This document shows, piece after piece, positions 54,289 to 61,313 of a stretch of 64,000 nt of DNA. Below the pieces are notes generated by a model. The model was not told the origin of the DNA and did not search any database. It was given only the letters and a program-made list of their open reading frames with translations. The first letter of the stretch is position 1. The number at the start of each line of letters is the position of its first letter. The stretch comes from Candidatus Bathyarchaeota archaeon (GTDB lineage Archaea; Thermoproteota; Bathyarchaeia; Bathyarchaeales; Bathycorpusculaceae): NCBI GenBank assembly GCA_963772455.1, contig CAVYXJ010000010.1:32001-96000 (forward strand), read 5' to 3'. Position numbers and translations under genes: made by a program.

Positions 54289-55896
54289 TTGGTTAAAGGC
54301 AAGAAGTCAATGAGTGCCCAGGAAAAACTCCAACGTGCAATCCAAGCAACTATGGAAGCTGGATATCAATTAAATAGCGAAGCATTCGAGTTCCTAATTC
54401 AAAACGCCCAAACCAACGATCCTGCAAAAATTATGAACTTGGCGCTTGAGAGAATCCAAGGATTACAAGATAAACCGATGTTTATTGAGAAAAGCTTCCT
54501 AGAACCGCTTCTACAAGTCATTGAATCTGGTCCGCTAATTCAAATATCTGAGCCTCAAAGTAGTCCATTGAATATTGTTCCACAACCTCAACTACGATCT
54601 ATTGAGGAATATCAAAGTTCCATTGAACCAGAGTTTTATCCGTACGCAAGAGACATTGCAGCAGAAATCAATATCCTTGAAGACGCTACTGGAAAACTCA
54701 CTTCAAACGGTACATTGGACGAGTATGTACTTTATTTTCAAGATAGGTTTAAACGAATCGAAAAAATCCTGAGGCAAAGGATTGATGTTAAAGCAGCAAC
54801 CCCAATCATCGAAGCTCTCAAATCGCCTCCAAAAACCAAGATTAAAATAATCTGCATGCTAACAGACAAAAGGGATTCAAAAAATAACATTATTCTTTCC
54901 GTCGAGGATTTACATGGAAGCGCTACTATTATTGTTTCTAAAAAAGCCCCTGAAGAAGTAAAGAAGAAAGCACTCACGCTTCTACCAGATCAGGTTTTTT
55001 GCGCTGCCGTCGTCAAAACAAGAAGCGAATTGCTGATGGCTGAAGATATAATTTTTCCTGACGTAGGCAGAAAAGTGCCACAAAGAGCACAAGAACCAGT
55101 TTATGCTGTCCTCACATCGGACATCCACATTGGCAGCACAAAATTTACCAAAGAGCCATTCAAACGCTTCATCCTCTGGCTAATGGGCAAGTATGGAACC
55201 CCTGAAATGCGCCAGATAGCCAGCCGTGTTAAATATCTTCTTGTTGCTGGTGACATTGTGGATGGCATAGGCATTTATCCTGGGCAACAAAACGAGCTAA
55301 CCATAAGGGATTTGCATAAGCAATACAATTTTGCAATTAAATATTTAGAAAAAATCCCAGATTACATTGAAATCATTCTTTCCCCAGGTAACCATGATGC
55401 AGCACGAAAATCCCTGCCACAACCTGCAATTCCAGAAGGATATTTGACTGCTATTCAAGGCAAAAAGAACATACACTCAGTAGGTAGTCCATGCCTACTA
55501 AGCATTCATGGTGTAGAAGTACTCATGTACCACGGCAGAAGCTTAGATGACATAGTATCAGTTATCCCTGGCATGGACCATCAGCACCCAGAAAAATCGA
55601 TGCGTTTACTCATGCAAGGACGACATTTAGCACCCGTCTATGGTGGAAAAACCATGCTTTCCCCGGAAAACCGCGATTACCTCGTAATCGACAAAGTTCC
55701 AGACATTTTTCATGCAGGACACGTACATGTTAATGGTCTTTGCAATTACCGTGGAGTGCTTGTGGTTAATTCTGGCGGGTGGCAAGAACAAACTGATTAC
55801 ATGGAAAAGTTAGGGTTGGTTCCTACACCAGGACTGGTGCCCGTTGTGAACCTTCAGACTCTTCAGACCACCGTTTTATCTTTTAACGATGTCTAA
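54289..55896 (+). CDS. polB: DNA polymerase D small subunit DP1
   Basis: SDIHIGS, AGDIVDGIGIYPGQ, PGNHDA, YHGRSLDD, RHLAP and GHVH; start may be ATG 54310. Confidence 0.95.
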   Translation: MVKGKKSMSAQEKLQRAIQATMEAGYQLNSEAFEFLIQNAQTNDPAKIMNLALERIQGLQDKPMFIEKSFLEPLLQVIESGPLIQISEPQSSPLNIVPQPQLRSIEEYQSSIEPEFYPYARDIAAEINILEDATGKLTSNGTLDEYVLYFQDRFKRIEKILRQRIDVKAATPIIEALKSPPKTKIKIICMLTDKRDSKNNIILSVEDLHGSATIIVSKKAPEEVKKKALTLLPDQVFCAAVVKTRSELLMAEDIIFPDVGRKVPQRAQEPVYAVLTSDIHIGSTKFTKEPFKRFILWLMGKYGTPEMRQIASRVKYLLVAGDIVDGIGIYPGQQNELTIRDLHKQYNFAIKYLEKIPDYIEIILSPGNHDAARKSLPQPAIPEGYLTAIQGKKNIHSVGSPCLLSIHGVEVLMYHGRSLDDIVSVIPGMDHQHPEKSMRLLMQGRHLAPVYGGKTMLSPENRDYLVIDKVPDIFHAGHVHVNGLCNYRGVLVVNSGGWQEQTDYMEKLGLVPTPGLVPVVNLQTLQTTVLSFNDV

Positions 55897-57134
55897 GTGA
55901 GGGGGTTTGGGTTTTTGCGAGAAGCTTGGGGTGAATACTCAATCAATCGATTAAAACGATTATCGCTACTAAAGACGTCTCTAATCAAACTGCGAGATAT
56001 CTCAAGCCTAATCTTTTTAGTTCTGCCGTATCGTCCCATGCTTACAACTTTTGCGTTCACAAGACCCATCGAATCAAGCTCGTTGACCAAAGTACCTAAA
56101 CGACGCTGTGTTAGAAGCCCAGCGCCCATTTCACCGCATAGTTCATTGTAAATATCGTATATTTCGCCTGTAGTAGCGCTCGACCTATTTAGGTGGTAAA
56201 CACTCAGCAACACTAACTTTGAATGCAACGTCAGATTATTGAGAGCTTCAATAACTCGATTGTGTTCAATATGTTTCTCTGCTTGGCGTACATGTTCCTC
56301 AGTAATTGTTTTTGCACCTGAACGCTCAGCAACTTCGCCAGCAACACGCAACAGATCTAAAGCACGCCTAGCATCACCATGTTCCGCAGCAGCCAAAGCT
56401 GAGCAAATACTCAAAGCTGAATCTGAAAGAACTCCATCTTGGAAAGACAATTTTGATCGTTCTAGCAAAATATTTCGAAGCTCCCCAGCATCATATGGCC
56501 TAAAGACAAGTTCTTCTTCACTTAATGAACTGAATACTCTCGGGTCCAAGAATTCTTTTAGGCGAAGATCATTTGAGATTCCAATTAGGGCAACTTTGCT
56601 TTTGGTTAACGTTTCATTTATCCTTGTTAACTCATACATGAAAGCGTCGCCATGTTCCTTAATCAAGGCGTCAACCTCATCCAAAACTATGATGAATATT
56701 ATCCTTGATTGTTCTAACCCTGAGCGGAACCTGTCAAAGACTTCACCTACTGATAAACCAGTGAAGGGAATGGTTAATCCTACACTTTGGCTTAAGGCTG
56801 CGAAAACCCTGTATTCTGAACCTGTCATACGACAGTTAATGTAGCAGAATTTGACTTGTGCACCATATTCTTTTGCTTTGGATTCCAGATGGCTTAAAAC
56901 ATATTTTGTTACGGCTGTTTTTCCTGTTCCAGTTTTTCCATAAATGAAAATATTTGAGCAACGTGAATCTCTCAAGACTGGAGCAACAGTTGCACCTAAC
57001 AATCGAATCTGGTCTTCACGGTGTGGAAGTTTTTCCGGAAGATAATCATGTCTTAAGACCTCGCGGTCTTTGAACAATTTAACTCCGTTTACGAAGTTTT
57101 CGAATACATCATCTAATACGCTTGAGTTGCCCAT
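55893..57134 (-). CDS. cdc6: Orc1/Cdc6 replication initiator
   Basis: LPHREDQI, YGKTGTGKT, LDEVD, GDARRALDLLR and C-terminal wH with GRYGRT. Confidence 0.97.
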   Translation of the reverse strand: MGNSSVLDDVFENFVNGVKLFKDREVLRHDYLPEKLPHREDQIRLLGATVAPVLRDSRCSNIFIYGKTGTGKTAVTKYVLSHLESKAKEYGAQVKFCYINCRMTGSEYRVFAALSQSVGLTIPFTGLSVGEVFDRFRSGLEQSRIIFIIVLDEVDALIKEHGDAFMYELTRINETLTKSKVALIGISNDLRLKEFLDPRVFSSLSEEELVFRPYDAGELRNILLERSKLSFQDGVLSDSALSICSALAAAEHGDARRALDLLRVAGEVAERSGAKTITEEHVRQAEKHIEHNRVIEALNNLTLHSKLVLLSVYHLNRSSATTGEIYDIYNELCGEMGAGLLTQRRLGTLVNELDSMGLVNAKVVSMGRYGRTKKIRLEISRSLIRDVFSSDNRFNRLIEYSPQASRKNPNPLT

Positions 57135-57281
57135 TCACTATCCCACACTGCTTCAGAGGTAACACCGTTACTTCGTGTGGAACAGATAAAGTCTATAGTA
57201 CAAAAAAATAGTTTTAGAACACAACATTCCTAAAAAACAATGAAAACAAACGATAATAACCAAACAAAGCGAGAGCACACA

Positions 57282-57303
57282 CACCCCAATGTTTCTACTC
57301 GAG
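57282..57303 (-). promoter_or_regulatory. ORB element 1
   Basis: Reverse complement CTCGAGTAGAAACATTGGGGTG resembles the ORB consensus TTCCAGTGGAAAC-N-GGGG. Confidence 0.8.
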
Positions 57304-57466
57304 AAAAAAGCTTAGTAAAAGAAAATCACTAAATAATATATATACAATTATATACTCTGATAGGTAAGATGTTTTTTTATATATTAATAATTGCTATCAA
57401 AGAATTTAGACAAACATTCTGCAAATATTTTTTCAGCCTCACCTGTGTTCTTTTTGTCCTAAATAC

Positions 57467-57488
57467 TTCGAGAGGAAACATAGGGGTG
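57467..57488 (+). promoter_or_regulatory. ORB element 2
   Basis: TTCGAGAGGAAACATAGGGGTG. Confidence 0.85.
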
Positions 57489-57619
57489 CGTCTCCAACCA
57501 TTTTTCCATAGTAAATTGTCCATGCGATAGCTTCTATGTGACAAATTGTAATATGGCTTAACTGAATTCAAGTTAAAGTTTCTTTAACAATTTTTTTAGT
57601 TGTCTTTTCCAGGATTTTC

Positions 57620-57920
57620 ATTCACAAAACTGTGAATAGATGTGAATTGATAGAGAAGATGTTGATTTATCAAGCTTTGATTCTGGTAAATTACCATTTT
57701 TAGGTCTTTTACATGTGAACAAGGCACCCCTACGCTTCTACTGGAAAAGTATAACCAAGGCTGAACTGAATTATTTCAGACGTTTCTTTTTACTGTGAAG
57801 CTGGTAATAACAAACAAACTTCAAATTACACCCGATATAGATTTATGAGCATCTAAATCGCTTATTTATTTACCATGATTCACCATAACAGCTATAAGGT
57901 GTGAAGCATAAAGTTGTGAA
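57620..57920. repeat. TGTGAA box cluster
   Basis: TTCACA 57621; TGTGAA at 57631, 57641, 57714, 57794, 57900 and 57915; palindrome ATTCACA-AAAC-TGTGAAT. Confidence 0.7.
57725..57746 (-). promoter_or_regulatory. ORB element 3
   Basis: Reverse complement TTCCAGTAGAAGCGTAGGGGTG. Confidence 0.85.
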
Positions 57921-57941
57921 CAACCTTAAGGTGTATACCAG

Positions 57942-58376
57942 ATGCCGGCTCGGAAAATGCGCGTTGAGCTGTTCGATAGCGATGGTAATCGATATACTAT
58001 TGCTTTTGAGGGTCAAGTGACCAGAGAAAAAGCTTTGCGCCTTCTGGATCTGGTAGAGTTGCTGGGAAGTGCGCCGGGAGAAAACCTTAGTACGAATACA
58101 GGTACGGCTTTACCTAACAAGACCTTGTCACGTTTTGAAAAGGTTCAACTCGTTATCCAGAAAAACTTTCCTTTGATTTGGTTCTCTTCAAAGGATATAC
58201 AGTCAATTTACGAGCAGGAACTCAAAGAACCCGTCGGCCTCAGCACAGTTTCAACATATCTTTCAAGGATGTCAACCAAAGGTATGCTGCTTAGAACGGG
58301 TGGACCAAACTCCTTGAAATACAAGTCCGTGCCAAACCTTTCCCAAGCGACAACCATAAAACAACATATAAAATAA
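57942..58376 (+). CDS. Uncharacterised protein: small N-terminal domain plus C-terminal winged helix
   Basis: FSSKDIQSIYEQ..VGLSTVSTYLSRMSTKGML.RTG wHTH pattern. Confidence 0.8.
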   Translation: MPARKMRVELFDSDGNRYTIAFEGQVTREKALRLLDLVELLGSAPGENLSTNTGTALPNKTLSRFEKVQLVIQKNFPLIWFSSKDIQSIYEQELKEPVGLSTVSTYLSRMSTKGMLLRTGGPNSLKYKSVPNLSQATTIKQHIK

Positions 58377-58471
58377 CCGAGACCAAGCTCTAAACAATTT
58401 AATTCAATCCAGGTTTGGATGTTTGAATCCAAATTTTTTTTAGTTAAACTATTTCGAAGCTTCTTTTAAAT

Positions 58472-59212
58472 TTACGATTGGCTGCTTTCAGCTTTTTGCA
58501 TCAGATTCTCCATTTCTTTTTTGATGCTGTATCTGAATGGAATTTTGCCAGCTTCTCGCTCCAGATATCCTTCTTCGTAGAGTTTCTTCATCAATCTTGC
58601 CGTGTGTTCCCTGCTAAGGTGAACTCTTTCTTTGATTTCAGGTGCCGTTTTCGCCCCTTCTTTGGATAAAATTTCTAGAACTGATATTTCAGTGTCAGTT
58701 AATGAGGCCATGGCTTTGTCACGTTTTAGCATTATAACGGGTTCACTCCTAATTTCAGGTGGGGCAATGTTGATTTTTCGGATTTGTTCTTCAAAACCCG
58801 TAATCTTTACTCGCAGTGTTTCTTGAGTTGCTTCTATGTCTTTTATTTTTAGCTCTAAACCTGATAACCCTGAAAGTATGTTTGTGTTATTTTGTGAGAG
58901 GTTTTGTGATATTGTTTGTGTTATGACGCCAATTTGTTCTTCGAATGGCTTTATCCTTTTTTCCACGTTATCTATCTTCTTTAGGCTGGTATCTGTTTTT
59001 GCAGAGTTACCTTCAACTTTGAATGTGATTATATCTAATTTGTCGGCTTCACGTTTTAGCTCCCGATTGAAACTTAGCACAATATCTTCGACAAAGTCTC
59101 TGGCTTTTTCGTATTCTTTTTGTGCTTTACGTATTTGTCTGTAATACTCAAATGACGCTGCTGATGTTGCAGCTAACAGGATGCCAATGAGTATTGGTGT
59201 AAAGTCGACCGT
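58472..59212 (-). CDS. Putative membrane-anchored coiled-coil winged-helix protein, probable ACG start at 59212
   Basis: Frame is open 44 codons upstream of track start 59080 and encodes VDFTPILIGILLAATSAASFEYY; long heptad region; LTDTEISVLEIL..TAPEIKERVHLSREHTARLMKKLYEEGYLER wHTH. Confidence 0.78.
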   Translation of the reverse strand, partial: TVDFTPILIGILLAATSAASFEYYRQIRKAQKEYEKARDFVEDIVLSFNRELKREADKLDIITFKVEGNSAKTDTSLKKIDNVEKRIKPFEEQIGVITQTISQNLSQNNTNILSGLSGLELKIKDIEATQETLRVKITGFEEQIRKINIAPPEIRSEPVIMLKRDKAMASLTDTEISVLEILSKEGAKTAPEIKERVHLSREHTARLMKKLYEEGYLEREAGKIPFRYSIKKEMENLMQKAESSQS

Positions 59213-59498
59213 GATGTATTACCCCTGTGATTTACGCGTGATTTTAGCAGTAACATCACACATCACAGTAATTCCATGGACTTTTTAAGGTTTGTGGTCA
59301 CATTATCACATGTTAACTATGACATCACACATCACAGCCAAATGACTTGTAACAAAAAGTCATTGCAACAGAATCGTTAAGGTTTAAAATGAGGTTATTT
59401 TATTAATTAAAGCATTTATTATAGTTATAATTTCATGTTTGAAATATCATTTTTGGTACGGGAAAAAGTTGTTATTGCCTGTGATTTGTGACGTCACA
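59211..59498. repeat. ATCAC/GTGAT box array including a 16-bp direct repeat
   Basis: ACATCACACATCACAG at 59253 and 59322; 14/16 inverted copy at 59479; palindrome TGTGACGTCACA at 59487; further GTGAT/ATCAC at 59211, 59227, 59238 and 59305. Confidence 0.8.
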
Positions 59499-59991
59499 GA
59501 ATCTCTTTTGATGGACTAGAAAGCTGTTTTAGGCTCGTTTCGAGCTCCTCACGGATGATTTCTATGACTTTTAGATGATCTTTTAGTTCCTCTTCCTTCC
59601 CTGGGATGTCTTGGTGCGCCTCGACATATTCGTGAAGTTTATTGGCTATTTCGAGATACGGGTCAAGAGTTGGGCTCTCAAAAACACCCAAATACCCTAA
59701 AAGTAGTACTGTGTAGATCGATTTTATTACGTTTTCTTTGGACTGTTTTAAAGTCCTATTAAACGAGCCGCGGCTTATTTTAGCCTTAGTTAATCTTAAG
59801 GCAGCTTTTTCATCGTACTTTAGCTGTTTATCTGATATATTCTCGGCTAAAACGTCTATTAGCAGAGTTTCGAGTTGAGTTCTTGTTAATTGACTGTTCT
59901 TAGCCAGGATTTTGACTATAGGGTCGTTTAATGCCCCATTTAACCATGCTTGTACACCATCTTTTAGCTTCAAAGTGACACTATCTCCCAT
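59494..59991 (-). CDS. Uncharacterised HTH-like protein
   Basis: SQLTRTQLETLLID..KYDEKAALR..KISRGSFNRTLKQS..IYTVLLLGYLG. Confidence 0.78.
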   Translation of the reverse strand: MGDSVTLKLKDGVQAWLNGALNDPIVKILAKNSQLTRTQLETLLIDVLAENISDKQLKYDEKAALRLTKAKISRGSFNRTLKQSKENVIKSIYTVLLLGYLGVFESPTLDPYLEIANKLHEYVEAHQDIPGKEEELKDHLKVIEIIREELETSLKQLSSPSKEIL

Positions 59992-60363
59992 GCTCTGAAT
60001 GGATACAGTTTTGTATTCCCAGCCTGCTTTTTAAGTTTTAGCTAGGTCAAACATCATACTAATTGTCCAATAAAGCCTGTAAATATTCGTTTAAACAGCT
60101 AAATAACCTAAAAATAATGCTTATTTGGTGTTTATGGCATATTTTGCCATAGTTAACATAAATAAGGTTAAATTATAGGCAATCCAAATCGAGTTATAGT
60201 AGGAACTTTAAACAAAAAATACACTTTTGTAATCTCTTCCAAAGATGTTTCTCGTTTTTTTAGACAACTTTATCCAAACAAAACCCATACGTTTTCATTT
60301 TTACACAAATTAAAACACAGTTTTTGACATAAATGCCTAACTTATCAACAATAGGAACGTTCC

Positions 60364-60477
60364 GTGACGTCACCAATCACGAGCAAAAATCACTGTGATT
60401 TCACCATAAAACTGTTGATATCACGGGCTGTGATTCAATTGTGATATGTGGCTACGGAGAAAGATTTTTTGTGTGAC
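60364..60477. repeat. Second ATCAC/GTGAT box array
   Basis: GTGACGTCAC 60364; ATCAC 60376, 60389 and 60420; TGTGAT 60394, 60429 and 60440; TGTGAC 60472. Confidence 0.78.
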
Positions 60478-60479
60478 GC

Positions 60480-61313
60480 TTAAAGAAGCTCGGAATAATC
60501 CTTTAGTTTATCAAAAAGTTCAGGCCGTAAGTCCTTAAGCGTTGGAATAAACGTTTCTGCTGTCCTTAAATCGTCAAAATCCACTTCACAGACGATAAAA
60601 TCTTCTTCATCGTACTTTGCCTTAGCCAAAACATCGCCAGTAGGGCCGACAAGGCGGCTTCCTCCCCAAAATTGCAGGCCATCCTCAACTCCAGCAAGGT
60701 TAACATATGCAAGAAAAGCCGTATTCTCCAATGCACGGGCAGAAGTTAAGATCTCAAAATAGTTTCTCCGTACGGCTGGAGACGCAGAAATACAGATTAT
60801 CAATTGTGCCCCTTTCAGTCGAGTCAACCTATACACTTCTGGAAAGAAAACATCATAGCAAATCGTTAACCCAATGTTTCCCAATTCAGTTTGGTACTCG
60901 GATGTATCGTAGCCTGGACGGAAATATCTTTTCTCTTCAAAAACACTGTGCGTTGGCAGATACATTTTGCGGTATTTGCCGATTAAACCCTTGGGTCCAA
61001 CAAAAACGGCGGTGTTAAAGATTATCGCTTTGGTTTTTTTGCTAAGCTCAGGCATTCCAAAAATGATATACATCCCTGTTTTCTTTGCTAAATCCTCAAT
61101 TCTCTGAGTAGACGTTCCAGGTATCGTTTCAGCTAATTCATAGACCTGATCTAAAATGACATAGCCCGTAAGCGAAAGCTCAGGGAAGATAATTAGATCT
61201 GCTCCTTGCTGCTTGGCTTTCAAAGTTAACTTTTCGATTTTAAGCAGATTATCTCTTTTACTTTCTCGTTTGCTGCTTATTTGAGCGAGTGCAAGTTTAA
61301 TCTTACTTTTCAT
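60480..61313 (-). CDS. Carbon-nitrogen hydrolase (nitrilase superfamily), candidate glutaminase partner of NadE
   Basis: FPELSLTGY (E), YRKMYLP (K) and ICYDVFFPE (C) catalytic triad. Confidence 0.92.
   Translation of the reverse strand: MKSKIKLALAQISSKRESKRDNLLKIEKLTLKAKQQGADLIIFPELSLTGYVILDQVYELAETIPGTSTQRIEDLAKKTGMYIIFGMPELSKKTKAIIFNTAVFVGPKGLIGKYRKMYLPTHSVFEEKRYFRPGYDTSEYQTELGNIGLTICYDVFFPEVYRLTRLKGAQLIICISASPAVRRNYFEILTSARALENTAFLAYVNLAGVEDGLQFWGGSRLVGPTGDVLAKAKYDEEDFIVCEVDFDDLRTAETFIPTLKDLRPELFDKLKDYSELL

Follow-up and report, generated by a model that had tools for sequence, protein, structure and literature searches.

The control of origin firing in archaea beyond the initiator Orc1/Cdc6 is largely unexplained. 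Here we describe a locus in a stretch of Candidatus Bathyarchaeota DNA (the window: 64,000 nucleotides, C10:32001-96000, from an assembly of 2.45 Mb in 24 contigs with 39.7% G+C and 92% completeness), in which an Orc1/Cdc6 gene and a predicted origin with origin recognition boxes (ORBs) stand beside three genes for putative DNA-binding proteins, called P1, P2 and P3 in the following. In working principle the closest described counterpart of P1 is UBP, the one accessory factor characterised so far, a non-initiator that binds the ucm motif between the ORBs of Sulfolobus oriC1 and is needed for origin activity (PMC12141716). That paper presents UBP as a beta-hairpin binder of 111 aa whose genomic sites exceed 300 in number, whose gene does not lie at the origin and which occurs in Sulfolobales and Desulfurococcales only, and its authors ask whether other archaeal lineages have analogous proteins (PMC12141716, Dhanaraju et al. 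2025). As UBP is described there, P1 would resemble it as a sequence-specific non-initiator whose short motif lies between the ORBs of an Orc1-1-type origin. Unlike UBP, P1 has 144 aa and a winged-helix-like C-terminus, is encoded at the origin itself and has composite candidate sites essentially only at the locus, and the TGTGAA boxes assigned to it keep clear of the AT-rich element, being placed from the ORB2-ORB3 interval onwards in the direction of P1. Where UBP has hundreds of sites, clusters of at least four TGTGAA boxes number three in the whole genome. P1 is a concrete candidate for a factor in origin-firing control, and together with the TGTGAA boxes it is, by analogy, a candidate answer to the question of the UBP authors.

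P2 touches another question, the positioning of chromosomes in archaea without a recognisable partition system. In principle its closest parallel is RicO of S. aureus, which combines a DNA-binding domain, a coiled coil and a membrane helix and, through nine sites spread over ~700 kb around oriC, anchors origins to the membrane (preprint). P2 offers a test of origin-to-membrane attachment in archaea, a principle shown for a coccoid bacterium only recently (preprint). P2 has the same three-part build in one protein, with putative specific sites near an origin; the order of the parts is reversed, since in RicO the DNA-binding domain is N-terminal and an amphipathic helix forms the C-terminus, whereas P2 begins with a transmembrane-type helix and ends in a MarR/TrmB winged helix. 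RicO sites are dispersed, whereas the boxes assigned to P2 fall into two clusters that together take up 1.3 kb at the P2 promoter, and dispersed origin-proximal sites were not found. RicO is bacterial and of demonstrated function, P2 is archaeal and of putative function, and the two have no sequence relationship. SegB of Sulfolobus works with the SegA ATPase; the trio resembles this pair in having an origin-adjacent site binder, but no gene matching the ATPase profile PF13614 occurs in the window. RacA of B. subtilis is a further parallel to P2. Finally, WhiP is a Cdt1-related winged-helix protein that serves as the initiator of the ORB-less oriC3 of Sulfolobus (PMC4010727). The trio is similar in that origin-adjacent genes encode putative site-specific proteins with repeated sites, but P1 accompanies an ORB/Cdc6 origin instead.

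No published description of the three-gene module was found in the literature searched. By profile comparison P1 and P3 belong to no curated family, and the domain of P2 is of the MarR/TrmB superfamily. The present analysis adds to a preliminary description of the window the genome-wide uniqueness of the boxes, the extension to Nitrosopumilus, the counts of ORB-P1 adjacency, the absence of P1 where orthologous Cdc6 and ORBs are absent, the invariance of the P2 recognition helix and its boxes across classes, a probable P2 start codon and the parallel with RicO.

An origin-flanking block of two putative units

The gene order of the locus is PhoU-like, PolD small subunit, Orc1/Cdc6, P1, P2, P3, nitrilase-family, NadE, Elf1 and GGGPS. 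The Orc1/Cdc6 gene (55893-57134, minus strand) encodes a 413-aa initiator with AAA domains and Pfam matches to Cdc6_lid (E = 2.1e-25) and Cdc6_C (E = 2.8e-24). A spacer of 807 bp separates it from the origin-flanking P1 gene (57942-58376, plus strand), whose 144-aa product has a conserved N-terminal domain and a C-terminal winged helix. P2 (58472-59212, minus strand) consists of an N-terminal membrane-type helix, a heptad-periodic middle region and a C-terminal MarR/TrmB winged helix, while P3 (59494-59991, minus strand, 165 aa) has a probable helix-turn-helix and a C-terminal helical region and is followed, after a spacer of 488 bp, by the nitrilase-family gene. The preliminary description had reported the three genes and two types of box array next to the origin, and both a re-reading of the sequence and hexamer counts locate them in the same places. 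It had also remarked that the window lacks a ParA-type ATPase, which is borne out for the PF13614 profile (no match in the window, six elsewhere in the genome; ParB families were not searched).

The reading that we favour, and to which we would give about an even chance, is that of an ancient conserved origin-flanking block in which three site-specific DNA-binding proteins work as two units and not as one. The first unit would comprise Cdc6, the ORB-type origin and P1, whose gene stands at the very origin on which the protein would act as an accessory factor; bound to the TGTGAA boxes, P1 would repress its own gene from the two boxes between the TATA-like element and its start, and from those interleaved with ORB2 and ORB3 at a spacing of about one helical turn it could modulate the occupancy of Orc1/Cdc6 or a later step of initiation. 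The second unit would be P2 with P3, a self-regulated complex confined to the locus, in which P2 is held in the membrane by its N-terminal helix and, as a probable dimer, grips GTGAY boxes through its winged helix, and in which P3 is under the control of its own palindromic operator. The block is a strong candidate for an undescribed form of archaeal origin control or of origin-to-membrane attachment.

The comparative data that carry this reading begin within the order. P2 was found in 35 of 41 related genomes, and among 20 order-level loci P2 and P3 are present in all, P1 in 19 and Cdc6 in 17, the other three running off the end of their contig. In each of the 16 order-level loci with all landmarks the Cdc6-P1 spacer holds 3-7 TGTGAA and 0-1 TGTGAT boxes, while the P2-P3 spacer holds 2-8 TGTGAT and 0-2 TGTGAA boxes. 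The two box types have hence been kept apart across a divergence down to 35-60% protein identity. At the level of the class, P3 is single-copy in 120 of 151 genomes (87 of the 95 of high quality), and 20 loci centred on P3 have Cdc6 within 10 kb in 15 cases, P1 in 13 and P2 in 14. Five genomes have P3 without an adjacent Cdc6, four of them in the order P3, P2, PolD, as if Cdc6, the origin and P1 had been removed in one piece.

Beyond the class, a P1 profile found its target in 80 of 121 genomes of the phylum, with a sharp division by family (15/15, 12/12, 7/7 and 6/6 in positive families, 0/10, 0/5 and 0/4 in negative ones). The family with 15 of 15 is Nitrosopumilus, judging from the names on the P1 orthologues, all of which are annotated as 'hypothetical protein' and some of which come from cultured species. 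The Nitrosopumilus-type order is PolD, Cdc6, two ORBs, P1, P2, P3 and GGGPS, and P2 lies within 1 kb of P1 in 47 of the 69 P1-bearing genomes outside the class, as read by eye from coordinate tables. The linkage of the trio to cdc6 and the origin, which the preliminary description had proposed as something to be looked for in relatives, is thereby kept at the level of the order, of the class and of Nitrosopumilus. The presence of P1 in cultured Nitrosopumilus makes the candidate testable; the table of a review lists a single mapped origin for that genus.

P1 and the TGTGAA boxes of the predicted origin

The Cdc6-P1 spacer has the make-up of an archaeal ORB-type oriC beside orc1/cdc6, that is, inverted ORBs around an AT-rich element with the initiator gene adjacent. 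ORB-type box 1 (57283-57303, minus strand) and box 2 (57467-57487, plus strand) enclose an AT-rich stretch with inverted AT-rich repeats (I9), 57304-57466, which is a candidate unwinding element, and box 3 (57726-57746, minus strand) forms an inverted pair (I3) with box 2. The loose pattern behind these assignments has 65 matches genome-wide (0.027 per kb), and the spacer, with three matches, is the sole genomic spot where at least two fall inside 600 bp. The genome has a second Orc1/Cdc6 paralogue outside the window (C7:36809-37915, 30% identity), with no ORB-pattern match within several kb. An origin of that paralogue, if any, would be of another kind, since it is this paralogue type that remains where the Cdc6-ORB-P1 unit is absent.

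The N-terminal domain of P1 comprises ~45 residues and is very conserved. Its C-terminus resembles Penicillinase_R in Pfam (17.3 bits against a cut-off of 22.6, E = 0.0064), PDB entry 2k4b matches the winged helix (E = 0.017), and CopY_TcrY matches P1 of the Nitrosopumilus type (E = 0.0015, 18.8 bits against a cut-off of 121.95). These BlaI/CopY winged-helix matches are the only family hits of P1 and all are below threshold. Operators of the BlaI/MecI/CopY repressors contain TACA/TGTA, a motif that recalls both TGTGAA and the ATACA-N4-TGTAT palindrome upstream of P3. P1 resembles these repressors in the winged helix only; unlike them it has an unrelated conserved N-terminal domain, lacks a C-terminal dimerisation domain of their kind and has no sensor partner nearby.

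The seven TGTGAA/TTCACA boxes (57621, 57631, 57641, 57714, 57794, 57900 and 57915; array 57621-57920) form the densest 300-bp cluster of this hexamer in the genome, where its overall rate is 0.60 per kb and where only two other clusters of at least four boxes occur. Pairs at a spacing of 3-10 bp number seven genome-wide, two of them at the locus. In dinucleotide shuffles of the spacers, none of 2000 reached the observed number of boxes in any of five tests covering both array types. Together with the TGTGAT array treated below, which is likewise the genome-wide maximum of its hexamer, this agrees with the density peak at the origin that the preliminary description had expected. The boxes at 57900 and 57915 sit between a conserved TATA-like element and the start of P1, the position in which archaeal repressor sites are found. 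The remaining boxes lie between ORB2 and ORB3, beside ORB3 and beyond ORB3. The usual distance from one TGTGAA box to the next is 9-11 bp, or one helical turn: 17 of 30 direct pairs fall in this range, and each of the 10 inverted pairs has a spacing of 10 bp.

P1 and the ORBs keep company. An ORB-pattern match within 600 bp upstream of P1 was found in 19 of 19 loci of the order, 13 of 13 of the class and 16 of 20 of the phylum, against a background of 0.08-0.09 matches per kb in the same comparison, and an ORB is still there in 10 of 14 P1 loci whose nearest 2.5 kb contain no Cdc6. One class locus has the ORBs next to P1 but Cdc6 at a distance of 3 kb; a second one is arranged as ORB, P1, P2, P3, ORB, Cdc6. 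TGTGAA clusters occur upstream of P1 in eight of 13 class loci with P1 and in none of seven without it, and at the two loci where Cdc6 and ORBs occur without P1 the TGTGAA boxes number zero and one. In the five genomes with P3 but no adjacent Cdc6, the P1 profile found nothing (0/5, at completeness 86-95%), and the best Cdc6 match there, at 26-33% identity, is of the second paralogue type. Taken together, the TGTGAA boxes are most likely bound by P1.

An explanation that needs no common task would be that P1, P2 and P3 are three ordinary, independent autoregulators which lie near the origin by inherited gene order and take no part in replication or segregation, with P1 perhaps regulating the gene pair that comes after it in relatives. 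Every array overlaps the promoter or 5' region of one gene of the trio, as such regulators would have it; the PhoU-like, PolD small subunit (54289-55896, plus strand, preceded by the PhoU-like gene), nitrilase-family, NadE, Elf1 and GGGPS genes are syntenic too; and P1 stands upstream of a 333-aa gene and a HerA gene in seven of 20 order-level loci. The TGTGAA boxes, however, run 200-320 bp upstream beyond the P1 promoter, among and beside the ORBs; P1 stays with the ORBs where Cdc6 has moved and was not found where the orthologous Cdc6 and ORBs are absent; the order Cdc6-ORB-P1-P2-P3 survives between Bathyarchaeia and Nitrososphaeria; and a membrane anchor such as that predicted for P2 has no evident use in a plain repressor. 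At that evolutionary distance, to our knowledge, little synteny beyond operons survives. On balance we hold this explanation to be unlikely. Were it correct, the locus would still yield three putative protein-motif pairs with clean comparative footprints and a probable non-AUG (ACG) start codon in an archaeon.

Several observations nonetheless weigh against the two-unit reading. Cumulative GC skew along the 467-kb contig shows no turn at the locus, so that the origin is predicted and not mapped. Five of the 13 class loci with P1 have no cluster of at least four TGTGAA boxes. In family f17 the P1 profile found nothing in three genomes, though Cdc6, ORBs, P2 and P3 are present, which suggests that P1 is dispensable for this ORB/Cdc6 type of origin in some lineages and which also suits independent autoregulators. 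GTTAAC boxes are more prominent than GTGAA in Nitrosopumilus-type origins, and their recurrence suggests that a further or altered box type may operate in that class. Where the 333-aa and HerA genes come after P1, P1 could regulate that pair. P2 and P3 persist beside PolD in four of 20 class loci without Cdc6, ORBs and P1, which argues against a strict origin role of the second unit. The assignment of boxes to proteins rests on co-occurrence among related genomes that are not independent, so the counts overstate the statistical weight, and as the whole neighbourhood from PhoU to GGGPS is syntenic, part of the linkage may be inherited gene order.

Three side observations concern P1 and its surroundings. 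The 333-aa gene, of unknown kind, and the HerA (DUF87) gene occupy an insert of ~2.6 kb between P1 and P2, in the orientation of P1 (for instance L022 5391-8025 and L030 5499-8031); the insert is absent between P1 and P2 in the window, and a HerA query found no match in the genome, which is 92% complete. In the Nitrosopumilus-type loci L075, L081, L086 and L067, GTTAAC-type boxes recur around the two ORBs and before P1, and single GTGAA boxes adjoin ORBs in Nitrosopumilus-type ORB-P1 spacers. The P1 promoter region contains the sequence TTCACCATAA (57867-57877), which is kept throughout the order and occurs again at 60398-60408 inside GTGAY array B, in the window and in one of three displayed relatives of the genus, with a shorter form in a second; being common to both regions, it hints at cross-talk between P1-type and P2-type sites.

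P2 and the GTGAY arrays

Residues 173-232 of P2 match MarR (PF01047, E = 2.2e-08, 34.3 bits against a cut-off of 24.6) and TrmB (PF01978, E = 1.2e-06, 28.7 bits against 25.6), while the NCBIfam models of Lrs14 (26.2 against 90 bits) and Sta1 (24.1 against 80 bits) stay below their cut-offs. All 29 sequences compared, which come from several classes, have the same recognition helix. P2 has the winged helix in common with archaeal regulators of the MarR/TrmB/Lrs14 type; unlike these it has a membrane helix, a spacer of ~140 residues and 21 boxes in arrays. That spacer, the middle region of the protein, has a hydrophobic periodicity of 3.5 residues (z = 3.95 against shuffles; z > 2 in 17 of 29 orthologues), and P2 probably dimerises through it. 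The N-terminus is a hydrophobic helix followed by basic residues, from which we infer that P2 is inserted in the membrane. Conservation of this helix, on which the preliminary description had staked the membrane role, was found in 40 of 48 orthologues (19-residue Kyte-Doolittle mean of at least 1.6); in the other eight it was not seen, a further count against a strict origin role.

The start of the P2 gene is unusual. Between the upstream stop (59221-59219) and the membrane helix there is no ATG, GTG or TTG, and the first canonical start is a GTG at 59080. In 16 genus sequences taken from 20 loci, the codons upstream of this GTG carry no indels and their substitutions are distributed 296/328/1191 over the three codon positions, which shows that the region is translated. 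The ACG codon at 59212-59210 is kept in 15 of the 16 sequences and replaced by ATG in the sixteenth. It probably serves as a non-canonical start and shares bases with the first GTGAT box.

That box opens array A. Its proximal part (59211-59335) comprises nine GTGAY boxes around and downstream of a conserved TATA-like element of P2 (~59281-59290), with boxes on both sides of the element and three more in the presumed leader; the first box of the array overlaps the first codons of P2. Its distal part (59481-59497), a GTGAT box and the palindrome GTGACGTCAC, overlaps the P3 stop. As a whole, array A (59211-59497) contains 12 GTGAY or, counted as hexamers, seven TGTGAT/ATCACA boxes, which is the densest 300-bp cluster of a hexamer that occurs at 0.41 per kb in the genome. 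The only other cluster of at least four TGTGAT boxes, found within a coding region of contig 13, is taken to be a chance occurrence. Nine GTGAY boxes, with a GTGACGTCAC palindrome among them, make up array B (60364-60477), which borders on the nitrilase-family gene at the 3' end of the latter; the three exact TGTGAT of the array were reached in five of 2000 shuffles. The distal end of array A and the start of array B are the arms of a 35-nt inverted repeat (I1, 80% complementary), so that the two arrays bracket P3 and its promoter. In 10 genomes of the genus the boxes of array B are invariant and the spacers between them variable. Among GTGAY spacings, 7 bp (44 cases), 10-11 bp (27) and abutting palindromes (24) dominate. 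Composite sites of the locus, namely GTGAY-RTCAC palindromes, GTGAT-N2-GTGAY, TGTGAA pairs and GGATACA-N4-TGTAT, are almost confined to it.

The GTGAY boxes follow P2 as the TGTGAA boxes follow P1. Of the 14 class loci that have P2, 11 show a TGTGAT cluster, and of the six that lack P2 none does; one of these six has a looser GTGAY cluster. GTGAY boxes bracket the TATA box of P2 itself in several classes, reach 8-11 per 400 bp upstream of P2 in Nitrosopumilus-type loci, partly inside the coding end of P3, and are also found upstream of P2 in two further lineages. Together with the invariant recognition helix, this leads us to infer that the winged helix of P2 binds these boxes. Regulators of the MarR/TrmB family typically control their own genes through boxes at the promoter, and since GTGAY boxes bracket the TATA-like element of P2 and both flanks of P3, the pair would be self-regulated. 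The clustered GTGAY sites all fall within 1.3 kb, at a distance of 1.5-3.3 kb from the ORBs. Since they occur essentially nowhere else, P2 on binding them would keep origin-proximal DNA at the membrane, be this its selected function or a side effect of a membrane-bound autoregulator.

The preliminary description had gone further and suggested a lineage-specific centromere in which the membrane protein P2 grips the GTGAY boxes and tethers the newly replicated origin, with P1 and P3 as auxiliaries and without a nucleotide-driven motor. The architecture of P2, in which a long heptad-periodic spacer links the DNA-binding domain to a membrane anchor, speaks for it, as does the conservation of the helix; the linkage also fits, with sites unique in the genome and close to the ORBs, and with P2 near the ORB-flanking P1 in the 47 of 69 genomes counted by eye above. 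Moreover, 21 GTGAY boxes in two clusters exceed what a simple operator needs, and in plasmid parC/ParR centromeres iteron arrays double as the promoter of the adaptor gene. Against the tether it must be said that P2, P3 and their arrays persist in lineages without the Cdc6-ORB-P1 unit, that the hydrophobic helix is missing from the eight orthologues mentioned, that the boxes sit exactly on the P2 promoter, where autoregulation explains them, that they are not dispersed around the origin as those of RacA or RicO are, and that ParA/MinD-type ATPases are encoded elsewhere in the genome. A single three-protein centromere module fits poorly because it is P1 that tracks the origin and not P2 with its membrane helix. 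The proposal is partly supported, in its architecture, linkage and helix but not in its demand for one origin-bound module, and as an account of the whole trio we regard it as possible, if somewhat unlikely. The two-unit reading could itself be carried further, to a two-part origin organiser of Thermoproteota that extends from Bathyarchaeia to Nitrosopumilus, in which P1, on the boxes among the ORBs, gates Orc1/Cdc6 or the release of the helicase and P2, clamped on its unique array 1.5-3.3 kb away, attaches the origin region to the membrane. By analogy such an organiser would be an archaeal counterpart to the membrane-attached replicon that Jacob, Brenner and Cuzin described, but this extension seems doubtful to us.

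The position of the arrays, on both sides of an AT-rich stretch of ~140 bp (59340-59480), also brings to mind a second replicator of the iteron type, with P2 or P3 as its initiator much as WhiP acts at Sulfolobus oriC3, and the P2/P3 unit does persist in genomes without the Cdc6-ORB unit. Those genomes, however, keep another Orc1/Cdc6 paralogue, and the AT-rich stretch is where the P3 gene ends and has its terminator region. Neither P2 nor P3 gave a match to a domain like that of helicase loaders in Pfam and NCBIfam, and no GC skew or other replication signal was found. A second replicator is accordingly very improbable, and the two-unit reading, with P2 and P3 as a self-regulated pair, remains the one that we prefer.

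P3, its palindrome and minor features

P3 matches no Pfam or NCBIfam family. Its own family has 394 representatives at E <= 0.001 among 1.84 billion proteins. Pfam scans of its members point to no consistent family: DUF134 matches two of 33 distant members (best E = 0.00058) and one of 34 close members (E = 0.064), each time short of the cut-off, and an Atlas search with a P3 homologue returned Bathyarchaeota clusters and one weak lead (Sigma70_r4 on 14% of members, score 0.79). Sequence and profile searches of PDB with P3 brought up no helix-turn-helix protein, only coiled-coil noise. As we read the family alignment, P3 is probably a helix-turn-helix protein with a helical C-terminal region.

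Directly upstream of P3 lies an ATACA-N4-TGTAT palindrome (60003-60016), a candidate P3 operator. It is invariant in all 10 genus spacers and occurs ~26 nt upstream of P3 in 36 of 40 loci of Bathyarchaeia and in one of 10 outside the class; the longer form GGATACA-N4-TGTAT is unique in the genome. An ACA-N4-TGT core is common to this palindrome and to a genus-specific one at 57621-57636, in the TGTGAA array.

An Rfam scan of 57000-60600 gave a single miRNA match, at E = 0.9 a chance hit. Between the P3 promoter and array B there are two conserved non-coding islands, at ~60153-60171 and 60202-60233. A TTAACAT element is found in one of them; in the other a conserved 20-mer comes after a TATA-like element. 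Both are kept in 10 genomes of the genus amid variable surroundings, and with no open reading frame of at least 40 aa and no Rfam match they may represent a small unannotated transcript or further binding sites.

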